31,320 nucleotides of DNA from a virus (lineage: Duplodnaviria > Heunggongvirae > Uroviricota > Caudoviricetes), in the IMG/VR virus record IMGVR_UViG_2734482786_000007, positions 1-31,320 of that record; one strand, written 5' to 3'. Made by a program: the position numbers and the translations under genes. The notes beneath the pieces were generated by a model. The model did not search any database and had not been told where the DNA came from. It was given only the letters and a program-made list of their open reading frames with translations. Positions 3,627-25,908 of this stretch are shown in pieces; within the stretch, counting starts at the first letter, position 1; each line of letters begins with the position of its first letter.

Positions 3627-5889
3627 AGCCTCCGGGCGTTTTGTCCCTCCGTCAGCATTTGCCGCAGGCACCGGTAAGACGTTTACCGGTGCTTATGCAT
3701 GGAACGCGCCACGCGAGGCCGTCGGGCGCGAAAGACCCCTTACACGTGACGAGATGCGTCAGGTGCAAGGTGTTTTATCCACGATTAACCGCCTGCCTTA
3801 CTTTTTGCGTTCGCTGTTTACTTCACGCTATGACTACATCCGGCGCAATAAAAGCCCGGTGCACGGGTTTTATTTCCTCACATCCACTTTTCAGCGTCGT
3901 TTATGGCCGCGCATTGAGCGTGTGAATCAGCGCCATGAAATGAACACCGACGCGTCGTTGCTGTTTCTGGCAGAGCGTGACCACTATGCGCGCCTGTCGG
4001 GAATGAATGACAAGGAGCTGAAAAAGTTTGCCGCCCGTATCTCATCGCAGCTTTTCATGATGTATGAGGAACTCAGCGATGCCTGGGTGGATGCGCATGG
4101 CGAAAAAGAATCACTGTTTACGGATGAGGCTCAGGCTCACCTGTATGGTCATGTTGCTGGCGCTGCACGTGCTTTCAATATTTCCCCTCTCTACTGGAAA
4201 AAATACCGTAAAGGACAGATGACCACGAGGCAGGCATATTCTGCCATTGCCCGTCTGTTTAACGATGAGTGGTGGATTAGTCAGCTTAAAGGCCAGCGTA
4301 TGCGCTGGCATGAGGCGTTACTGATTGCTGTCGGGGAGGTGAATAAAGACCGTTCTCCTTATGCCAGTAAACATGCCATTCGTGATGTGTGTGCGCGCCG
4401 CCAGGCAAATCTGGAATTTCTTAAATCGTGTGACCTTGAAAACAGGGAAACCGGCGAGCGCATCGACCTTATCAGTAAGGTGATGGGCAGTATTTCTAAT
4501 CCAGAAATTCGCCGGATGGAGCTGATGAACACCATTGCCGGTATTGAGCGTTACGCCGCAGCAGAGGGTGATGTGGGGATGTTTATCACGCTGACCGCGC
4601 CGTCAAAGTATCACCCGACACGTCAGGTAGGAAAAGGCGAAAGTAAAACCGTGCAGCTTAATCACGGCTGGAACGATGAGGCATTTAATCCAAAGGATGC
4701 GCAGCGTTATCTCTGCCGTATCTGGAGCCTGATGCGCACGGCATTCAAGGATAATGATTTACAGGTCTACGGTTTGCGTGTCGTCGAGCCACACCACGAC
4801 GGAACGCCGCACTGGCATATGATGCTTTTTTGTAATTCACGCCAGCGTAACCAGATTATCGAAATCATGCGTCGCTATGCGCTCAAAGAGGATGGCGACG
4901 AAAGAGGAGCCGCGCGAAACCGTTTTCAGGCAAAACACCTTAACCGGGGCGGTGCTGCGGGATATATCGCGAAATACATTTCAAAAAACATCGACGGCTA
5001 TGCACTGGATGGTCAGCTCGATAACGACACCGGCAGGCCGCTGAAAGACACTGCAGCGGCTGTTACCGCATGGGCGTCAACGTGGCGCATCCCGCAATTT
5101 AAAACGGTTGGCCTGCCGACAATGGGGGCTTACCGTGAACTACGCAAATTGCCGCGCGGCGTCAGCATTGCTGATGAGTTTGACGAGCGCGTCGAGGCTG
5201 CACGCGCCGCCGCAGACAGTGGTGATTTTGCGTTGTATATCAGCGCGCAGGGTGGGGCAAATGTCCCGCGCGATTGTCAGACTGTCAGAGTCGCCCGTAG
5301 CCCGTCGGATGAAGTTAACGAGTACGAGGAAGAAGTCGAGAGAGTGGTCGGCATTTACGCGCCGCATCTCGGCGCGCGTCATATTCATATCACCAGAACG
5401 ACGGACTGGCGCATTGTGCCGAAAATTCCGGTCGTTGAGCCTTTGACTTTAAAAAGCGGCATCGCCGCGCCTCGGAGTCCTGTCAATAACTGTGGAAAGC
5501 TCACCGGTGGTGATACTTCGTTACCGGCTCCCACACCTTCTGAGCACGCCGCAGCAGTGCTTAATCTGGTTGATGACGGTGTTATCGAATGGAATGACCC
5601 GGAGGTCGTGAGGGCGCTCAGAAGCGCATTAAAACACGGCCTGAGAAGACCAAACCGTCAGCAAAGAAACGGAAGCCCGTTAAAACCGCATGAAATAGCG
5701 CCATCGGCCAGACTTACCCGGTCGGAACGAATGCAAATTACCCGTATCCGCGTTGACCTTGCTCAGAACGGTATCAGGCCGCAGCGATGGGAGCTTGAGG
5801 CGCTGGCGCGTGGGGCAACCGTAAATTATGACGGGAAAAAATTCACGTATCCGATTGCTGAAGAGTGGTCGGGATTTTCCTCAAACTAA
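3616..5889 (+). CDS. A: Rolling-circle replication initiation endonuclease (P2 GpA-like), 757 aa from the ATG at 3616
   Basis: Large protein with the HUH-type metal-binding motif (PHWHMMLF) and an active-site tyrosine region (GYIAKYISKNIDGY) characteristic of P2 A; the N-terminus MAVKASGRFVPP matches my memory of P2 A. The ORF track start at 3574 would overlap the previous gene by 53 nt, so the internal ATG is preferred. Confidence 0.9.
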   Translation: MAVKASGRFVPPSAFAAGTGKTFTGAYAWNAPREAVGRERPLTRDEMRQVQGVLSTINRLPYFLRSLFTSRYDYIRRNKSPVHGFYFLTSTFQRRLWPRIERVNQRHEMNTDASLLFLAERDHYARLSGMNDKELKKFAARISSQLFMMYEELSDAWVDAHGEKESLFTDEAQAHLYGHVAGAARAFNISPLYWKKYRKGQMTTRQAYSAIARLFNDEWWISQLKGQRMRWHEALLIAVGEVNKDRSPYASKHAIRDVCARRQANLEFLKSCDLENRETGERIDLISKVMGSISNPEIRRMELMNTIAGIERYAAAEGDVGMFITLTAPSKYHPTRQVGKGESKTVQLNHGWNDEAFNPKDAQRYLCRIWSLMRTAFKDNDLQVYGLRVVEPHHDGTPHWHMMLFCNSRQRNQIIEIMRRYALKEDGDERGAARNRFQAKHLNRGGAAGYIAKYISKNIDGYALDGQLDNDTGRPLKDTAAAVTAWASTWRIPQFKTVGLPTMGAYRELRKLPRGVSIADEFDERVEAARAAADSGDFALYISAQGGANVPRDCQTVRVARSPSDEVNEYEEEVERVVGIYAPHLGARHIHITRTTDWRIVPKIPVVEPLTLKSGIAAPRSPVNNCGKLTGGDTSLPAPTPSEHAAAVLNLVDDGVIEWNDPEVVRALRSALKHGLRRPNRQQRNGSPLKPHEIAPSARLTRSERMQITRIRVDLAQNGIRPQRWELEALARGATVNYDGKKFTYPIAEEWSGFSSN

Positions 5890-6060: not shown

Positions 6061-6094
6061 AGGGCAAGAGGGTGTTCTTGCCCTTTGTTTATTT
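6061..6094. terminator. Bidirectional intrinsic terminator between gene A and the convergent cargo gene
   Basis: Perfect 8-bp stem AGGGCAAG/CTTGCCCT (6061..6068 and 6077..6084) with an 8-nt loop, followed by TTGTTTATTT on the plus strand and preceded by an A/T run that supplies a U-tract for the minus-strand transcript. Confidence 0.6.
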
Positions 6095-8687
6095 AAGCGG
6101 CGATTTCAATGTTGCTTTTATATTTTAAGAGGGCGTTTTTGGGAACTGCTGGCCAGGCTGAGTATCTATAATAGTTCATATAATCTTTCTCTATCAGTGT
6201 TTTTAGCTGTTTGTTAGCTTGAACTTCATCACCAAGTAAAAAGAATGCACACATGGCCGTAGCCCCTTTTGAATTGTTATGTGCTAAAACTGAATTTATC
6301 TCATTCTTTTTAATGTCTTGCCCTTCTTTTTTCTTGGCAACTTCTCTATTGATTATTAAAACATCTTTTTCCCTGTAATCTTTAATTTTTTCAAGGTTTT
6401 CATTAGCGATTTTAATTGTTTCTTTATAGTTTCCTGCAAGAAGATTGGTATAAGATTTTCCTAAGATATAATCACTAAACCCGTAACCTTTTTCATAAGC
6501 TTCATCAAGAAGAACTATCGCTTTATCATAATCGCCGTTTAAAGATGCAATATCAGATTTTAATTTTAAAATGGTGATTTCTGATTTGTTTCTTGGCAGG
6601 CCATCAATAAACTCCTCTGCCAATTTGATGTTGTTTTTATCAATTAGTAATATGTCTACAATACTGTTTGTATGATTATTTTTCCACGGGCAGTTCATGG
6701 CTTCTTTGACTAATTCAATACCAGCCTTGATGTCCCTGTTGCAGCCTATCTCATATCGAGCTTTAAATATAATGAAAGGAGCAATTCTTGCAATGTCGCT
6801 CTCTTCTTCATATTTATCAATAAAGCCTTTCATCAGGTTGGGAGTGTTTTCATCGAAGTCTGTTTCAAATAAAGATAGATGCAGTTGTGTTAAATATTTT
6901 AATATGTTTCTTTTTTTATTTTTTGATGATGTTTTGTAAGCGTTGGATAATGTATCTATGCATAATAATGTATCTTCTTTCTTTTGCAATGCGCAGGTGA
7001 AATCAGTATATAACGACAAATATGTATCGTGAGTAGGGTTGACCTCTTTTATTTTGTCAAGCAGTTCTTGTATTAATTTATTACAATCTTTCTTATCATG
7101 GCTTGATTGATGTTTTGTCTTTATTGCGTCATATTTTATTCTCCATGCAATATTATCCAGATCACTGCTTTGGAGTAAGCTTTTATCAATTAAATCATGT
7201 ATTTCATCAAAGGTTATTAATTCTTCATCATTATTTTCTAGATGTAGAATAGCAATTCTGCTTAAATGATTCTTAAGATTTATGCTATATGGGAATTTTT
7301 CAAGCAATCCCTTAAGGTAATGTATTTTTGCCTTTAGATCTGTGAATATGTTTGCCCTTGAAAGGGCGTAATTTATATTAAATTCATCAAGAGCTATAAG
7401 ATTATCACTAATTTCTAATGCTGACTTTGTGTCTTTTTGTTCTTCTTTTATTTCAATTAGCCTACGCAGATATTTAGACTTTATATTGTCACTATCAGCG
7501 TTATTGATTAATTCATTCAGTTTTGACTCTGCGTTTAAATAATTTTTATTTCTAATGAGGTTGTCAATGTATAACAAATTCTTAAAATCTTCTTCGGGGA
7601 TCTTTTGATCGTCTAAATCACTTTGGGATAGCTCGTTTATTAATGACGATATGTCATGTGTTAGAGTGTGTTTTTTTAATTTTGAGAGATCAGATTTGAT
7701 AATGCCATTTTTAGATAAGTTGTACTCATCTGTTATAAAGTTTTGGATCATCATCTCTCTTTTTGTGGATTTTTGATTCCCTCCAAAAGAGAGTGCGCAG
7801 CCTAATTCTAGGGCTAGTTCTGCCATCAATTCATCAAAACCTTCTATTTCTACCCAATAAACTTTATCTTGACCTAGAAGCCTAATAAGTTCTGGTGGGA
7901 TGGAGTCATTTTTTCTAACGCACCAGTATACTCCATTTCTTAGATAATCGTCCTGTTTTAATAAATGTTTTAAAACATCCATGATAGAGCTGTCATTGCC
8001 AGCATAACCAACAAAAATAATCCCGTATTCTTTAGTGAATTCAGTTAGTTTTTCACGAGTGTTACCTTCTAATGACTCGGTTTCTTTTAAAGAGCTTTTT
8101 ATGCTATCAAATAAATAATCACCATGTAATTTTATTATTTTTGGCCTTGAAGAAGTAATTGAGACGCCTTTAATTGATGAATCATGTGCACATAATAATG
8201 GTCTGTCAGAAGAAAATTGATAAAATGCTTCATTTATTAAATCGTCAAAATTTGTTGTGAAGACAGTATCAAAAAACTTTGATTCAAATAGTTCAACGAG
8301 ATAAGCATATCCAATTGAAGGTAATTTTTTGTCTACTTGAAGCTCAACAAATCTTCTGCGTTGAGATGGAAGATCAAATTTCTTTTCAAAAAGAGATGAG
8401 TATTCATTGTTTGGGTCGTACCAGACTGGATGGTTTTTGGATAGCCATTTTTTAGCTTCTTCGGCATCGACATATTCTTGATTGGATAGTCTTGTGTATA
8501 TCTCTTCTCTCCATTTCGCTACTAACTCTTGACCAGTTTTTATTCCAGATGTAACGGATGCGCCAGCACCAAGAAAAAGTGAATAGTTAGGTGATGTACC
8601 TGATTTGATTTTTATATAATCAGCTAAATCTTTAACGGTTCTTTTTTTGGCAACCAGTTGTTCCTTGGTAGTATCACGATCAGACAT
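6093..8687 (-). CDS. SIR2-like (DHS-like NAD-binding) domain protein with a long C-terminal helical/TPR-like domain, 864 aa; candidate single-gene anti-phage defence protein
   Basis: N-terminal about 300 aa carry the SIR2_2-type signature: glycine-rich loop FLGAGAS (G40-S44), TTNFDD (N146), KLHGDY (H188), FVGYAGND. The C-terminal about 560 aa are Lys/Asn/Asp/Glu-rich helical repeats (e.g. GDYDKAIVLLDEAYEKG). Strongly AT-rich against the flanking phage genes; own GGAGGG Shine-Dalgarno; sits where P2 carries tin/old. Confidence 0.8.
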   Translation of the reverse strand: MSDRDTTKEQLVAKKRTVKDLADYIKIKSGTSPNYSLFLGAGASVTSGIKTGQELVAKWREEIYTRLSNQEYVDAEEAKKWLSKNHPVWYDPNNEYSSLFEKKFDLPSQRRRFVELQVDKKLPSIGYAYLVELFESKFFDTVFTTNFDDLINEAFYQFSSDRPLLCAHDSSIKGVSITSSRPKIIKLHGDYLFDSIKSSLKETESLEGNTREKLTEFTKEYGIIFVGYAGNDSSIMDVLKHLLKQDDYLRNGVYWCVRKNDSIPPELIRLLGQDKVYWVEIEGFDELMAELALELGCALSFGGNQKSTKREMMIQNFITDEYNLSKNGIIKSDLSKLKKHTLTHDISSLINELSQSDLDDQKIPEEDFKNLLYIDNLIRNKNYLNAESKLNELINNADSDNIKSKYLRRLIEIKEEQKDTKSALEISDNLIALDEFNINYALSRANIFTDLKAKIHYLKGLLEKFPYSINLKNHLSRIAILHLENNDEELITFDEIHDLIDKSLLQSSDLDNIAWRIKYDAIKTKHQSSHDKKDCNKLIQELLDKIKEVNPTHDTYLSLYTDFTCALQKKEDTLLCIDTLSNAYKTSSKNKKRNILKYLTQLHLSLFETDFDENTPNLMKGFIDKYEEESDIARIAPFIIFKARYEIGCNRDIKAGIELVKEAMNCPWKNNHTNSIVDILLIDKNNIKLAEEFIDGLPRNKSEITILKLKSDIASLNGDYDKAIVLLDEAYEKGYGFSDYILGKSYTNLLAGNYKETIKIANENLEKIKDYREKDVLIINREVAKKKEGQDIKKNEINSVLAHNNSKGATAMCAFFLLGDEVQANKQLKTLIEKDYMNYYRYSAWPAVPKNALLKYKSNIEIAA

Positions 8688-20841: not shown

Positions 20842-22971
20842 ATGAGCACAAAATTCAAAACCGTTATCACCACTGCCGGTGCAGCAAAGCTGGCAGCAGC
20901 AACCGCACCGGGAGGGCGGAAGGTCAACATTACCACGATGGCCGTCGGGGATGGCGGTGGTAAATTGCCTGTCCCGGATGCCGGACAGACCGGGCTTATC
21001 CATGAAGTCTGGCGACATGCGCTGAACAAAATCAGCCAGGACAAACGAAACAGTAATTATATTATCGCAGAGCTGGTTATTCCGCCGGAGGTGGGCGGTT
21101 TCTGGATGCGTGAGCTTGGCCTGTACGATGATGCGGGAACGTTAATTGCCGTGGCGAACATGGCCGAAAGCTATAAGCCAGCCCTTGCCGAAGGCTCAGG
21201 ACGTTCGCAGACCTGTCGCATGGTCATCATCGTCAGCAGTGTGACCTCAGTGGCGCTGACCATTGACACCACAACGGTGATGGCGACGCAGGATTACGTT
21301 GATGACAAAATTGCAGAACATGAACAGTCACGACGTCACCCGGACGCCTCGCTGACCGCAAAAGGTTTTACTCAGTTAAGCAGTGCGACCAACAGCACGT
21401 CTGAAACACTGGCTGCAACGCCGAAAGCGGTTAAGGCCGCATATGACCTGGCTAACGGGAAATATACCGCACAGGACGCTACCACAGCGCGAAAAGGTCT
21501 TGTCCAGCTCAGTAGTGCCACCAACAGCACGTCTGAAACGCTTGCCGCAACACCAAAAGCGGTAAAAGCAGCATATGACCTTGCTAACGGGAAATATACC
21601 GCACAGGACGCCACCACAGCGCGAAAAGGTCTTGTCCAGCTCAGTAGCGTCACCAACAGCGATTCTGAAACGCTTGCGGCAACGCCAAAGGCGGTAAAGG
21701 CCGCGTATGACCTTGCTAACGGGAAATATACTGCACAGGATGCCACCACAGCGCGAAAAGGTCTTGTCCAGCTCAGTAGCGCCACCAACAGTGATTCTGA
21801 AACGCTGGCTGCAACGCCAAAGGCGGTTAAGACAGCGTATGACCTTGCTAACGGGAAATACACTGCACAGGATGCCACCACAGCGCGAAAAGGTCTTGTC
21901 CAGCTCAGTAGCGCCGCCAACAGTGATTCTGAAACGCTGGCTGCAACACCAAAAGCGGTGAAGTCTGCCAATGACAATGCTGAAAAACGTCTTCAGAAAG
22001 ATAAGAACGGTGCGGATATTCCTGATAAAAGATTATTCCTGCGTAATATCGGCACAACAAATTCAACAACCATATCTTTTAGTGGTGGCGCTGGATGGTT
22101 CAGGCTGGCAACTGTAACCATGCCACAGGCCAGTTCCGTGGTTTACATAAGCCTGATTGGTGGTGCAGGGTATAACGTTGGCTCTCCGCAGCAAACAGGC
22201 ATCTCTGAGCTGGTTCTGCGTGCAGGAAATGGAAATCCAAAAGGTCTTACTGGTGCATTATGGCGACGGACCTCGGTTGGATTTACTAATTTTGCATGGG
22301 TGAATATATCTGGTGATACCTATGATATTTATGTAGAAATAGGTAATTACGCCACGGGTGTTAATATTCAGTGGGATTATACCAGTAACGCCAGCGTAAC
22401 GATTCATACATCACCAACTTATACAGCGAATAAACCAACAGGCCTGACAGATGGAACTGTATATATAATTTACAGTTCGCACATTAAACCAACTGCTGCT
22501 GATGTTGGGGCGTTGTCATTATCTGGAGGTCAATTGAATGGTGCACTGGGCATCGGAACATCCAGTGCTCTTGGCGGTAACTCGATTGTTTTGGGTGATA
22601 ATGACACGGGCTTTAAACAAAATGGCGACGGTAATCTGGATGTTTATGCTAATAACGTCCATGTTATGCGCTTTGTCTCCGGTAGCATTCAAAGTAATAA
22701 AACCATAAATATTACGGGGCGTGTTAACCCCTCGGATTACGGTAACTTTGATTCCCGCTATGTCCGGGATATCCGGCTTGGTGGTGCTGCCACATACAAA
22801 CCTGCGAACAATGGCATGACATGGACACATCAGGCACCGTCCGGGTGTGTATATTCCGGCATTATTGTTCAGGATACCGGCTCAAACTCTGCCGATAACA
22901 TTGGTGGCGTATATTACAGACCGGTTCAGAAATACATTAACGGGACATGGTATAACGTGGCACAGGTATAA
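20842..22971 (+). CDS. H: Tail fibre protein (P2 GpH-like), 709 aa, with internal tandem repeats and an AT-richer C-terminal domain
   Basis: Follows the baseplate genes and is followed by the tail fibre assembly gene G; conserved N-terminal part, repeat block in the middle, compositionally distinct C-terminal part. Confidence 0.88.
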   Translation: MSTKFKTVITTAGAAKLAAATAPGGRKVNITTMAVGDGGGKLPVPDAGQTGLIHEVWRHALNKISQDKRNSNYIIAELVIPPEVGGFWMRELGLYDDAGTLIAVANMAESYKPALAEGSGRSQTCRMVIIVSSVTSVALTIDTTTVMATQDYVDDKIAEHEQSRRHPDASLTAKGFTQLSSATNSTSETLAATPKAVKAAYDLANGKYTAQDATTARKGLVQLSSATNSTSETLAATPKAVKAAYDLANGKYTAQDATTARKGLVQLSSVTNSDSETLAATPKAVKAAYDLANGKYTAQDATTARKGLVQLSSATNSDSETLAATPKAVKTAYDLANGKYTAQDATTARKGLVQLSSAANSDSETLAATPKAVKSANDNAEKRLQKDKNGADIPDKRLFLRNIGTTNSTTISFSGGAGWFRLATVTMPQASSVVYISLIGGAGYNVGSPQQTGISELVLRAGNGNPKGLTGALWRRTSVGFTNFAWVNISGDTYDIYVEIGNYATGVNIQWDYTSNASVTIHTSPTYTANKPTGLTDGTVYIIYSSHIKPTAADVGALSLSGGQLNGALGIGTSSALGGNSIVLGDNDTGFKQNGDGNLDVYANNVHVMRFVSGSIQSNKTINITGRVNPSDYGNFDSRYVRDIRLGGAATYKPANNGMTWTHQAPSGCVYSGIIVQDTGSNSADNIGGVYYRPVQKYINGTWYNVAQV
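21358..21969 (+). repeat. About 4.6 tandem copies of a 132-bp (44-aa) in-frame repeat inside tail fibre gene H
   Basis: Unit LSSATNSTSETLAATPKAVKAAYDLANGKYTAQDATTARKGLVQ recurs with a period of exactly 132 nt (unit starts at 21376, 21508, 21640, 21772, 21904) with a few synonymous and conservative differences between copies. Confidence 0.9.
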
Positions 22972-22974
22972 TTT

Positions 22975-23502
22975 ATGCAGCATTTAAAAAATATTACGGC
23001 GGGTAATCCAAAAACGGTTGAACAATATCAATTGACAAAGGGTTTTGATGTTGTTTGGTTTTTTTCAGAAGATGGTAAGAACTGGTACGAAGAACAAAAG
23101 TATTTTACTGATGATACGATAAAAATAGCGTACGACAAAGATAATATTATCCGCTATGTGGAAAAGGATGTGACAGCTATCAGACCAGATGGATTAAGTG
23201 TTGTTGAAGTGCCGGATATTACTGCTAACCGACGGGCGGACATTTCAGGGAACTGGATGTTTAAGGACGGTACAGTGATTAAACGAATTTATACGGCAGA
23301 GGAATTGCAGCAGCAGGCAGAAAATCGGAAAGCCAGACTTCTAGCAGATGCTGAATCCGTTATTTTGCCGCTGGAGCGCGCTGTCAGGCTGAATATGGCA
23401 ACAGATGAGGAGCGTAGCCGACTGGAAGCATGGGAACGCTACAGTGTTCTGGTCAGCCGTGTGGATCCTGCAAATCCTGAATGGCCGGAAATGCCGCAAT
23501 AA
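22975..23502 (+). CDS. G: Tail fibre assembly chaperone (P2 GpG-like), 175 aa
   Basis: Size identical to P2 G; immediately downstream of H; C-terminal EWPEMP-type tail characteristic of tail fibre assembly proteins. Confidence 0.85.
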
Positions 23503-23891
23503 GTGATATGATCTCTTGTGTTAGTTAACATAGCTATAGTACAGAGTAAGGCCTAATCTGACAGTCCGCTCTGTGCTAGGAGCGGACATTATCAACATCA
23601 TGCTATGTTAATGTATAAAGTGAAGATAAATTGATATAATAAGGCCACCATGAATATTTCAGAACCTTGTCAAAAGGTTTGCACATACTCTAGTCTTGCA
23701 ATGTGTAGTTGATAGTTCCACTGAGGAGGTTCTTCGACATTCTTTATAAAAATGTACATTTCCATCAGTAATAAGAGGTAAAAGGGCTTTAATAGTTTTT
23801 TGTGGATGTTGTTTCTACTCATAAATTTTGAGATAAGTATTGAGTTGAGATAAAGTTAAACTCGTTAAATTCACTTTTAAAAGGATAAAGC

Positions 23892-24419
23892 ATGGACTGG
23901 AAAGATCTTGCATCAACCGCTGTGTATACAGGTATGACTGATGAAAATGAAAGCATATGGGAACGTGTTGATGGGGTTGACGTTGCCTTCATAGGTGCCT
24001 TTCTTACTGCGCACTTGAGCCTTGAAAAGTATATTACTGATTATCTTGGATTAAGATATCCTTCGTTAGCTTGGGGTGATGCAAAACTCACATTTTCACA
24101 AAAAATAGCTTTAATACAACATGAGCCTGCAAAATCCCCTTATGATGAAATATATTTAAGAATAAAAGACTTTAACAGCATAAGAAATAAAATCAGTCAT
24201 CAATTGAATTATCAGATTACGGATAAAGAAAAAAGTAAGTTTGTGGACTTCTACATGAAGATTACTAAAGCCAGTAAAACTAAACCAAATATTGACATTG
24301 ATAACATGGCAGATTTGTTGGATTTTTTCGTATCGATGACGAAATCCTATTTTGCTAGTGCTATTTCTTATTGTCACTATAATAAAAAGCTTGCAGGTAA
24401 AAGTAATAAAATTGATTAA
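23892..24419 (+). CDS. Cargo protein at the Z/fun position, 175 aa, with an HEPN-like R-N-x3-H motif; candidate abortive-infection/defence gene
   Basis: AT-rich ORF with its own AAGGA Shine-Dalgarno, isolated by about 390 bp and 300 bp of non-coding DNA between G and FI; motif I-R98-N-K-I-S-H103 (nt 24183..24200) fits the Rx4-6H HEPN signature. Confidence 0.6.
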   Translation: MDWKDLASTAVYTGMTDENESIWERVDGVDVAFIGAFLTAHLSLEKYITDYLGLRYPSLAWGDAKLTFSQKIALIQHEPAKSPYDEIYLRIKDFNSIRNKISHQLNYQITDKEKSKFVDFYMKITKASKTKPNIDIDNMADLLDFFVSMTKSYFASAISYCHYNKKLAGKSNKID

Positions 24420-24594
24420 TAAAACTGGACTTAGGGATAATTAATATATAGACGTTCTATCATTTTTAGAGTGTGCGGCAGCTCCATACATTCATGCGGA
24501 TGTCAGCACCTCGCTCAAAGCAGACAGTCAGATTTGATAGCGTTTGGACTATGTAAATAGTCAGTTGGAAAATGAGTGAGTACAAATCAGGACA

Positions 24595-24622
24595 GGCGGG
24601 CGAATTGCCCGCCTTTTCTTTA
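24595..24622 (+). terminator. Intrinsic terminator upstream of the FI late operon
   Basis: GC-rich 7-bp stem GGCGGGC/GCCCGCC with loop GAATT, followed by TTTTCTTTAT. Confidence 0.6.
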
Positions 24623-24624
24623 TC

Positions 24625-24645
24625 TGTTGTTTCATCCACTGACCA
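24625..24645 (+). promoter_or_regulatory. Candidate Ogr-dependent late promoter element upstream of FI (imperfect TGT-N12-ACA-like site)
   Basis: CTGTTGT-N12-CCA directly after the terminator and about 90 bp upstream of the FI start; shares the CTGTTGT core with the site upstream of O. Confidence 0.3.
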
Positions 24646-24717
24646 GCCAGGTCAAATAGCGCCTCATACTCTGCACAACAGAAAATAATTGCACCCATTA
24701 ACCACGGAGTTAAACGG

Positions 24718-25908
24718 ATGAGTGACTATCATCACGGCGTGCAGGTGCTGGAGATTAACGACGGCACCCGCGTCATTTCCACCGTATCCACTGCCATTGT
24801 CGGCATGGTCTGCACGGCCAGCGATGCGGATGCGGAAATCTTCCCCCTCAATAAACCGGTGCTGATTACCAATGTGCAGAGCGCAATTGCGAAGGCCGGT
24901 AAAAAAGGCACGCTGGCGGCATCGTTGCAGGCCATCGCCGACCAGTCAAAACCGGTCACCGTTGTCGTGCGCGTGGAAGACGGCACCGGCGACGACGAAG
25001 AAACGAAACTCGCGCAGACCGTTTCCAATATCATCGGCACCACCGACGAAAACGGTCAGTACACCGGACTGAAAGCCCTGCTGGCGGCGGAGTCGGTAAC
25101 CGGTGTTAAACCGCGTATTCTCGGTGTGCCGGGACTGGACACCAAAGAGGTGGCTGTTGCACTGGTATCCGTCTGTCAGAAGCTGCGCGCTTTCGGGTAT
25201 ATCAGCGCATGGGGCTGTAAGACCATTTCCGAGGTGAAAGCCTACCGCCAGAATTTCAGCCAGCGTGAGCTGATGGTCATCTGGCCGGATTTCCTCGCAT
25301 GGGATACGGTCACCAGCACCACCGCCACCGCGTATGCCACCGCCCGTGCGCTGGGTCTGCGTGCCAGAATCGACCAGGAGCAGGGCTGGCATAAAACGCT
25401 GTCCAATGTCGGGGTGAACGGTGTTACCGGCATCAGCGCATCTGTATTCTGGGATTTGCAGGAGTCCGGCACCGATGCTGACCTGCTTAACGAGTCAGGC
25501 GTCACTACGCTGATTCGCCGTGACGGTTTCCGCTTCTGGGGTAACCGTACCTGCTCTGATGATCCGCTGTTCCTCTTTGAAAACTACACCCGCACCGCGC
25601 AGGTGCTGGCCGACACGATGGCTGAGGCGCACATGTGGGCGGTGGACAAGCCCATCACCGCAACGCTGATTCGCGACATCGTTGACGGCATCAATGCCAA
25701 ATTCCGTGAGCTGAAAACAAACGGCTATATCGTGGATGCGACCTGCTGGTTCAGCGAAGAATCCAACGATGCGGAAACCCTTAAGGCCGGAAAACTGTAT
25801 ATCGACTACGACTATACCCCGGTGCCTCCTCTTGAAAACCTGACCCTGCGCCAGCGTATTACCGATAATTATCTGGCAAATCTGGTCACCTCGGTTAACA
25901 GCAATTAA
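24718..25908 (+). CDS. FI: Contractile tail sheath protein (P2 GpFI-like), 396 aa
   Basis: Size identical to P2 FI; GGAG Shine-Dalgarno; followed by the tail tube gene. Confidence 0.9.
   Translation: MSDYHHGVQVLEINDGTRVISTVSTAIVGMVCTASDADAEIFPLNKPVLITNVQSAIAKAGKKGTLAASLQAIADQSKPVTVVVRVEDGTGDDEETKLAQTVSNIIGTTDENGQYTGLKALLAAESVTGVKPRILGVPGLDTKEVAVALVSVCQKLRAFGYISAWGCKTISEVKAYRQNFSQRELMVIWPDFLAWDTVTSTTATAYATARALGLRARIDQEQGWHKTLSNVGVNGVTGISASVFWDLQESGTDADLLNESGVTTLIRRDGFRFWGNRTCSDDPLFLFENYTRTAQVLADTMAEAHMWAVDKPITATLIRDIVDGINAKFRELKTNGYIVDATCWFSEESNDAETLKAGKLYIDYDYTPVPPLENLTLRQRITDNYLANLVTSVNSN

Follow-up and report, generated by a model that had tools for sequence, protein, structure and literature searches.

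The window analysed in this study, a stretch of 31,320 nt, comprises nearly the whole of a P2-like prophage. Besides an integrase end, it contains replication gene A, the modules for head and tail, and the arrangement H - G - x - FI - FII - E - T, in which x marks the Z/fun slot. The gap between G and FI measures 1215 bp and holds one substantial ORF, encoding a protein of 175 amino acids with a HEPN domain (Table 1). The GC content is 35.6% in the gap, 33.1% in the ORF and 32.8% in the cargo segment delimited below, compared with 51.1% across the whole window. The original prediction, made from the letters of the sequence, described a solitary, AT-rich ORF of 175 amino acids with its own ribosome binding site between G and FI, and all of these features are present. 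The I-R-N-K-I-S-H stretch to which it drew attention was likewise confirmed, as a single RNKISH at residues 98-103.

Table 1 Features of the Z/fun slot and its flanks; positions are those of the window.
Feature	Position	Strand	Evidence and remarks
Gene G, tail-fibre assembly	22975-23502		Pfam Caudo_TAP, 1.4e-34
P2 backbone directly after G	23503-23590	+	aligns to P2 and P2-EC67; includes the left inverted-repeat arm
Left inverted-repeat arm	23555-23589	+	contains an 8-bp hairpin without T-run
AT-rich cargo of this Z/fun allele, one gene	~23591-24506	+	~916 bp; no homology to P2 or P2-EC67
Candidate sigma-70 promoter	23828-23856	+	TTGAGA-17-TAAAGT; 9/12 matches; weak
Ribosome binding site AAGGA	23881-23885	+	6 nt 5' of the ATG; direct reading of the sequence
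Solo HEPN-domain ORF	23892-24419	+	175 aa, ATG start; PHROG 5483; ORF listing
Predicted catalytic HEPN motif codons, R98-N99-K100-I101-S102-H103	24183-24200	+	sole R-x4-6-H match in the protein
Right inverted-repeat arm	24500-24534	+	at the start of the conserved backbone
Intrinsic-terminator-like hairpin with T-run	24594-24622	+	9 pairs, 7 G-C; conserved in P2, P2-EC67 and 569R9
Stretch aligned to the annotated PF activator-binding site and transcription start of P2	24624-24694	+	coordinates mapped via alignment from the P2 annotation
Sheath gene FI	24718-25908		Pfam Phage_sheath_1, 5e-34

The borders of the cargo were set by alignment to P2, P2-EC67 and phage vB_EcoM-569R9. Homology to P2-like phages runs from G to ~23590 and picks up again at ~24507, and therefore the swapped segment amounts to ~916 bp. 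The AT-rich insertion of 1.2 kb suggested originally matches the gap of 1215 bp, which is AT-rich, but the cargo within it is shorter. The Z/fun cargo is flanked, exactly at the points where the P2-like homology stops and restarts, by the two arms of an imperfect 35-nt inverted repeat with 80% complementarity, and a 'left/right inverted repeat' of a similar kind is annotated in the P2-EC67 Z-region record AJ512685. These repeats may be the recombination points at which the cargo is swapped. The promoter within the cargo is only a candidate, since sigma-70-like sites are no more numerous in the region (6) than in shuffled sequences (5.1). No terminator was predicted between G and the ORF, so that read-through from the late H-G operon could reach the gene. 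The terminator reported to follow the ORF does exist as a hairpin with a T-run (24594-24614); however, it lies 175 nt past the stop codon, directly 5' of the PF-aligned stretch, and belongs to the backbone that all P2-like phages have in common rather than to the cargo. From its position it would end the transcript of the cargo gene, or read-through from H-G, before the F operon. The PF-aligned stretch itself, as mapped from P2, corresponds to the late promoter of the F operon and is likewise backbone, not cargo. Two further items overlap this region. A 45-aa ORF on the minus strand (24561-24698), listed as a 'hypothetical protein' for 569R9 and for several further P2-like phages, is likely to be an annotation artefact, because it overlaps the conserved terminator and the PF-aligned stretch. 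A plus-strand match to the Rfam family STnc150, a Salmonella Hfq-binding sRNA, extends from 24375 to 24624 and ends at the conserved terminator; it reaches 22.8 bits against a gathering score of 60 and is probably not meaningful, as it consists mostly of AT-rich sequence and the terminator hairpin.

Two other regions of the prophage deserve mention. At the old/tin defence hotspot of P2-like phages, between the replication gene A and the portal gene, lies a gene on the minus strand (6093-8687) whose 864-aa product carries a SIR2_2 domain at its N terminus (Pfam 4.6e-15). In PADLOC it matches the SIR2 module of pAgo-associated SIR2 proteins (2e-59) and PDC-S65 (7e-26), and it is probably the second defence cargo of the prophage. 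The tail-fibre gene H (20842-22971) contains, at 21388-21963, a 132-bp (44-aa) unit repeated 4.4 times in tandem at 92% matches, which points to a tail-fibre shaft with a recently expanded repeat.

The 175-aa protein belongs to phrog_5483 (E 1.2e-58), a PHROG without assigned function, and every record of the protein and of its close family bears the label 'hypothetical protein'. Of 5426 complete E. coli genomes, 50 contain the cargo of this Z/fun allele, always on the chromosome, and a single deposited phage has it too, vB_EcoM-569R9 (ON470601.1), where the DNA is 98.8% identical. The annotated protein of 569R9 carries 13 X and 8 additional amino acids because a run of N in that record (~3680-3720) falls exactly over the R-x4-H motif; an 8-aa insertion in this homologue was therefore rejected as a true difference. 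Among four E. coli copies examined, the G-x-FI slot holds the gene in three, one of which is frameshifted: in E. coli ST2350 the frameshift splits the gene into two CDS. In E. coli E302 an IS21-family element stands in place of G, upstream of an intact copy of the gene, showing a decaying prophage that keeps its cargo. Close relatives form 23 clusters with 58-98% identity, all from Enterobacterales, with conservation along the entire protein. When 1.84 billion cluster representatives were searched with a profile (E <= 1e-3), 352 remote relatives were added, which reach Burkholderiales and are nearly all 160-210 aa long. Judged on its sequences, the family appears to be a real gene under selection.

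When searched as a single sequence, the protein gave no useful match in Pfam, PADLOC 2.0 or NCBIfam, and its assignment to a fold therefore comes from profiles and structure prediction. An AF2 model based on the close family alone was poor (pLDDT 61.7) and was superseded by a model based on a 78-sequence alignment of diverse relatives (pLDDT 92.6). In this model a short beta-hairpin (9-12 / 23-26) at the N terminus precedes helices at residues 31-55, 68-75, 86-103, 111-126 and 139-171. The top Foldseek matches of the model are two HepS chains, at a probability of 0.99-1.0 but with TM scores of just 0.44-0.50, and a fold search against BFVD returned nothing informative. In a PDB profile search with the family, HepS ranked first among solved proteins (E 1.6e-7) and Csm6 next (E 0.009). 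Relatives of the protein give further signals of the same kind: 21 of 136 match the PADLOC profile CARF_HEPN, others match Csm6 or Cas13b, and weak Pfam matches were obtained to HEPN_Cthe2314, Csm6_HEPN, MAE_28990, RiboL-PSP, Abi_2 and DUF4145. HEPN is the sole domain signal in the 175 residues. Both features of the HEPN superfamily, the all-alpha bundle with a motif helix and the R-x4-6-H motif, were found.

Metal-independent endoribonuclease activity, at a composite active site formed from a dimer, is characteristic of the HEPN superfamily and is predicted for this protein. In an alignment of 136 relatives, which are only 20-30% identical and have a mean column identity of 17%, R98 is invariant and G35, L38, H41, L42, E45, L66, F68, K71, N95, N99 and H103 are conserved in at least 90%. 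The RNKISH motif is thus not a chance occurrence, given the invariance of R98 and the conservation of N99, H103, E45, H41 and K71 among relatives so diverged. The most conserved segments are the three core helices, and the most variable are the turn of the hairpin (13-22), the loop 127-138 and the C-terminal tail. The proposal of a HEPN-type protein is borne out by both lines of search, profile comparison (HepS at 1.6e-7 and, with hhalign, 98.3%) and Foldseek. We hold it very likely that the protein has a HEPN fold with an intact catalytic motif.

HepS (STM14_3211; PDB 9oij/9oik) is a 'HEPN Solo' abortive-infection anticodon nuclease encoded by the Salmonella prophage Gifsy-1 (Sargen et al., Nature 2026, PMC13043305). 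At rest it is an inactive tetramer, and its termini form a trigger-binding sheet. It opens when these N- and C-terminal regions bind a peptide from J, a siphovirus tail-tip protein, whereupon HepS cleaves specific tRNA anticodon loops, with R100 and H105 being essential (PMC13043305). We recovered the HepS gene from IMG/VR and built an alignment of its family for profile-profile comparison. With hhalign, the HepS family aligned to the family studied here at 98.3% (E 1.8e-14), HepS residues 35-127 corresponding to residues 32-125 of the protein, that is, to the catalytic core only; a single HepS sequence still gave 96.9%. By BLASTP, HepS and the protein share 27% identity over 71 aa, and HepS, which is assigned to phrog_5712, cross-matches phrog_5483 at 1.3e-8. 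The aligned pairs (HepS/protein) include the motif residues R100/R98, N101/N99 and H105/H103 as well as E48/E45, F73/F68, K76/K71, I107/L105 and Y109/Y107. Judged from these alignments, HepS appears to be the nearest characterised relative of the protein, although a distant one.

The surroundings of homologous genes were compared. In a P2-like prophage of different organisation, the homologue follows the tail-fibre genes and has an AbiGi gene as its neighbour. At that locus (L006, 5708-7177, minus strand), a homologue with 58% identity is followed by AbiGi (Pfam 7.6e-58) and a 227-aa unannotated gene, and these genes are a small defence cluster after the tail-fibre genes. In Pectobacterium, the homologue resides on a chromosomal island with a tandem paralogue beside it and with DUF2971 and HTH + reverse-transcriptase genes nearby. 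The two tandem paralogues of Pectobacterium sp. PL64 (CP092070; L008, 4284-4781 and 5001-5510) have diverged from each other, and the upstream one reaches 98.3% in hhalign. A true HepS homologue (P0213), which is 43% identical to HepS, is present in PL64 as well, so that one genome carries several solo HEPN genes. In a third context the gene is isolated. No neighbouring gene is common to the contexts examined, two of which are P2-like prophages.

We propose that the gene is probably a one-gene 'moron' at the Z/fun slot of P2-like phages, encoding a HepS-like solo HEPN nuclease that acts as an abortive-infection or exclusion factor. By analogy with HepS, we infer that the protein is expressed in the lysogen, stays latent as an oligomer, responds to a trigger, has an RNA target and confers an anti-phage phenotype, and the sequence of events would be as follows. 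A promoter within the cargo would drive expression during lysogeny, and the protein would rest as an inactive oligomer. A protein of an incoming or competing phage would bind its variable N- and/or C-terminal parts, and binding would bring the R98/N99/H103 motifs of two protomers together into a composite active site. The activated protein would then cut RNA, most likely tRNA anticodon loops, whereupon translation would stop and the infection would be aborted. That the target is specifically the anticodon loops of tRNAs, cleaved after the sensing of a phage structural protein, is a part of this reading that we consider less likely than not. The frameshifted E. coli copy, the occurrence of promoter-like sites at chance level, the lack of a conserved counterpart of K71 and Y20 of HepS and the lack of matches of the protein itself in PADLOC 2.0, Pfam and NCBIfam count against the proposal as a whole.

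Three other explanations were weighed and are less likely than exclusion by a HepS-like nuclease. The protein could be an active HEPN RNase whose role lies in the life cycle of the phage itself or in competition between prophages and not in host defence, for instance by shutting down host translation late in the cycle or by blocking the induction of a co-resident prophage. The gene points the same way as the late H-G operon, from which transcription could read through, and HepS too affects co-resident prophages (PMC13043305). We nevertheless consider such a role unlikely: the gene is dispensable and most P2-like phages carry other cargo in the slot, its high AT content is that of a swapped accessory gene, and it is also found outside phages, in chromosomal islands.

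Alternatively, the protein could be a toxin with a hidden antitoxin, either a small protein or RNA encoded in the 300 nt of upstream cargo or a host partner, as in HEPN-MNT or AbiF-ncRNA systems. The original prediction had mentioned a host partner or a cognate RNA antitoxin as a possibility, and the comparison of loci speaks against it: the gene moves alone from one unrelated context to another. There is no second conserved ORF, and an MNT gene is adjacent neither in the cargo nor at the other loci examined. Two candidates on the minus strand were rejected as partners, a 50-aa ORF at 23670-23822 that has no counterpart at the other loci and an ORF at 23819-23992 whose matches arise just because it is antisense to the HEPN gene. 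An RNA antitoxin or ncRNA was rejected as well, as the cargo contains no tandem repeats and no Rfam family above threshold, the sub-threshold STnc150 match being mostly the terminator hairpin. The upstream DNA, which measures 150-216 nt elsewhere, is not conserved between contexts. Since neither a partner gene nor a repeat array nor a conserved upstream RNA accompanies the gene, the idea of an antitoxin is unsupported, and HepS is non-toxic alone and needs no antitoxin (PMC13043305); a hidden antitoxin therefore seems very unlikely to us. We give equally little credence to a non-catalytic, regulatory HEPN protein like MtlR/YggD that would bind RNA or protein to alter host or phage expression (lysogenic conversion), because the three motif residues R, N and H show little or no variation at a mean column identity of ~17%, a pattern expected of an active site, no MtlR match was found at the sequence level, and the gene lies in prophage cargo slots and defence-type islands rather than in sugar operons.

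The exclusion factor proposed here can be set against several known systems. In P2, the same slot between G and FI is occupied by Fun(Z) (NP_046777), a protein of 528 aa encoded on the opposite strand. The P2 record annotates fun(Z) as a non-essential lysogenic-conversion gene, which blocks T5 when cloned, and the Z/fun locus has been cited as a carrier of antiviral defences (PMC13586616). Whether the protein might be Fun itself had been left undecided in the original prediction. The two share their locus; however, they differ in size and strand, alignment detected no similarity (best BLASTP E 1.9), and identity was rejected. Csm6, other CARF-HEPN proteins and Cas13b resemble the protein in sequence around the R-N-x3-H helix, but this similarity is confined to the motif region, and the protein has neither a CARF sensor domain nor a CRISPR context. 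Abi_2 (AbiD/AbiF) does not match the protein and matches one of 78 relatives, at 0.0074. MtlR (3brj, 3c8g) was placed in the DUF4145-like HEPN group by Anantharaman et al. 2013 (PMC3710099). Unlike the gene studied here, MtlR is found in mannitol operons and the catalytic motif is often missing (PMC3710099). DUF4145 proteins are often fused to restriction or helicase modules, whereas the protein here stands alone and has itself no Pfam match.

The closest parallels are with HepS. Both are prophage-encoded proteins of ~200 aa with a single HEPN domain and without a partner gene, and the present protein, stand-alone and with one HEPN domain in 175 aa, falls within the 'HEPN Solo' size limit of <250 aa. 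'HEPN Solo' genes lack a conserved partner or immunity gene and are often located on prophages, which holds for the present gene too. The catalytic core, helices 1-4, is homologous, the R-N-x3-H motif occurs near the same position and is followed in both by an x-hydrophobic-x-Y-x-I-T-D-like stretch, and weak DUF4145-type signals are obtained from both. However, overall identity is only ~20%, HepS is longer (210 aa), and the two are assigned to separate PHROGs. The N-terminal 31 residues, predicted to form the beta-hairpin, and everything past residue 125 cannot be aligned to HepS. In our own mapping of the alignment, K71 and Y20, which are important in HepS, have no conserved counterpart, K71 of HepS aligning with L66. 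The carriers differ as well, a P2-like myovirus with the gene in a tail-gene slot in one case and a lambdoid siphovirus with HepS in a replication/antirepressor slot in the other. Since the HepS alignments match the core and not the termini, we regard the two as sister families, with a common catalytic core and solo architecture and a different periphery. The parts of HepS that bind its trigger are among those that cannot be aligned, and a trigger other than the siphovirus J protein is therefore expected. More tentatively, the family might represent a distinct sensor-nuclease lineage, in which the catalytic core of HepS is combined with a different sensing module that recognises another phage protein, excludes other phages and possibly cuts another RNA target. 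The sensing module would then consist of the conserved hairpin 9-26 with its hypervariable turn 13-22 and of the variable loop 127-138, and the C-terminal strand of HepS would be absent. If such a lineage exists, a genome could respond to more triggers by carrying diversified paralogues side by side, as Pectobacterium does.

Prophage-borne sensor-nucleases made of a single HEPN protein are already known, as is the role of Z/fun as a defence locus; what is new is a family that, by alignment, appears to differ from HepS in its sensing parts. Our results provide a name and a testable mechanism for a 'hypothetical protein' present in ~1% of complete E. coli genomes and belonging to a family of several hundred sequence clusters, and they add a predicted solo-HEPN nuclease to the known cargo of the P2 Z/fun hotspot. 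Of this architecture, HepS alone has been characterised so far; 393 HepS homologues were listed by Sargen et al. (PMC13043305). The comparison of the two families, with the same core and different termini, would constitute a natural experiment on how trigger specificity changes in single-protein sensors, and could show whether the version borne by a myovirus is tuned to spare its own carrier.
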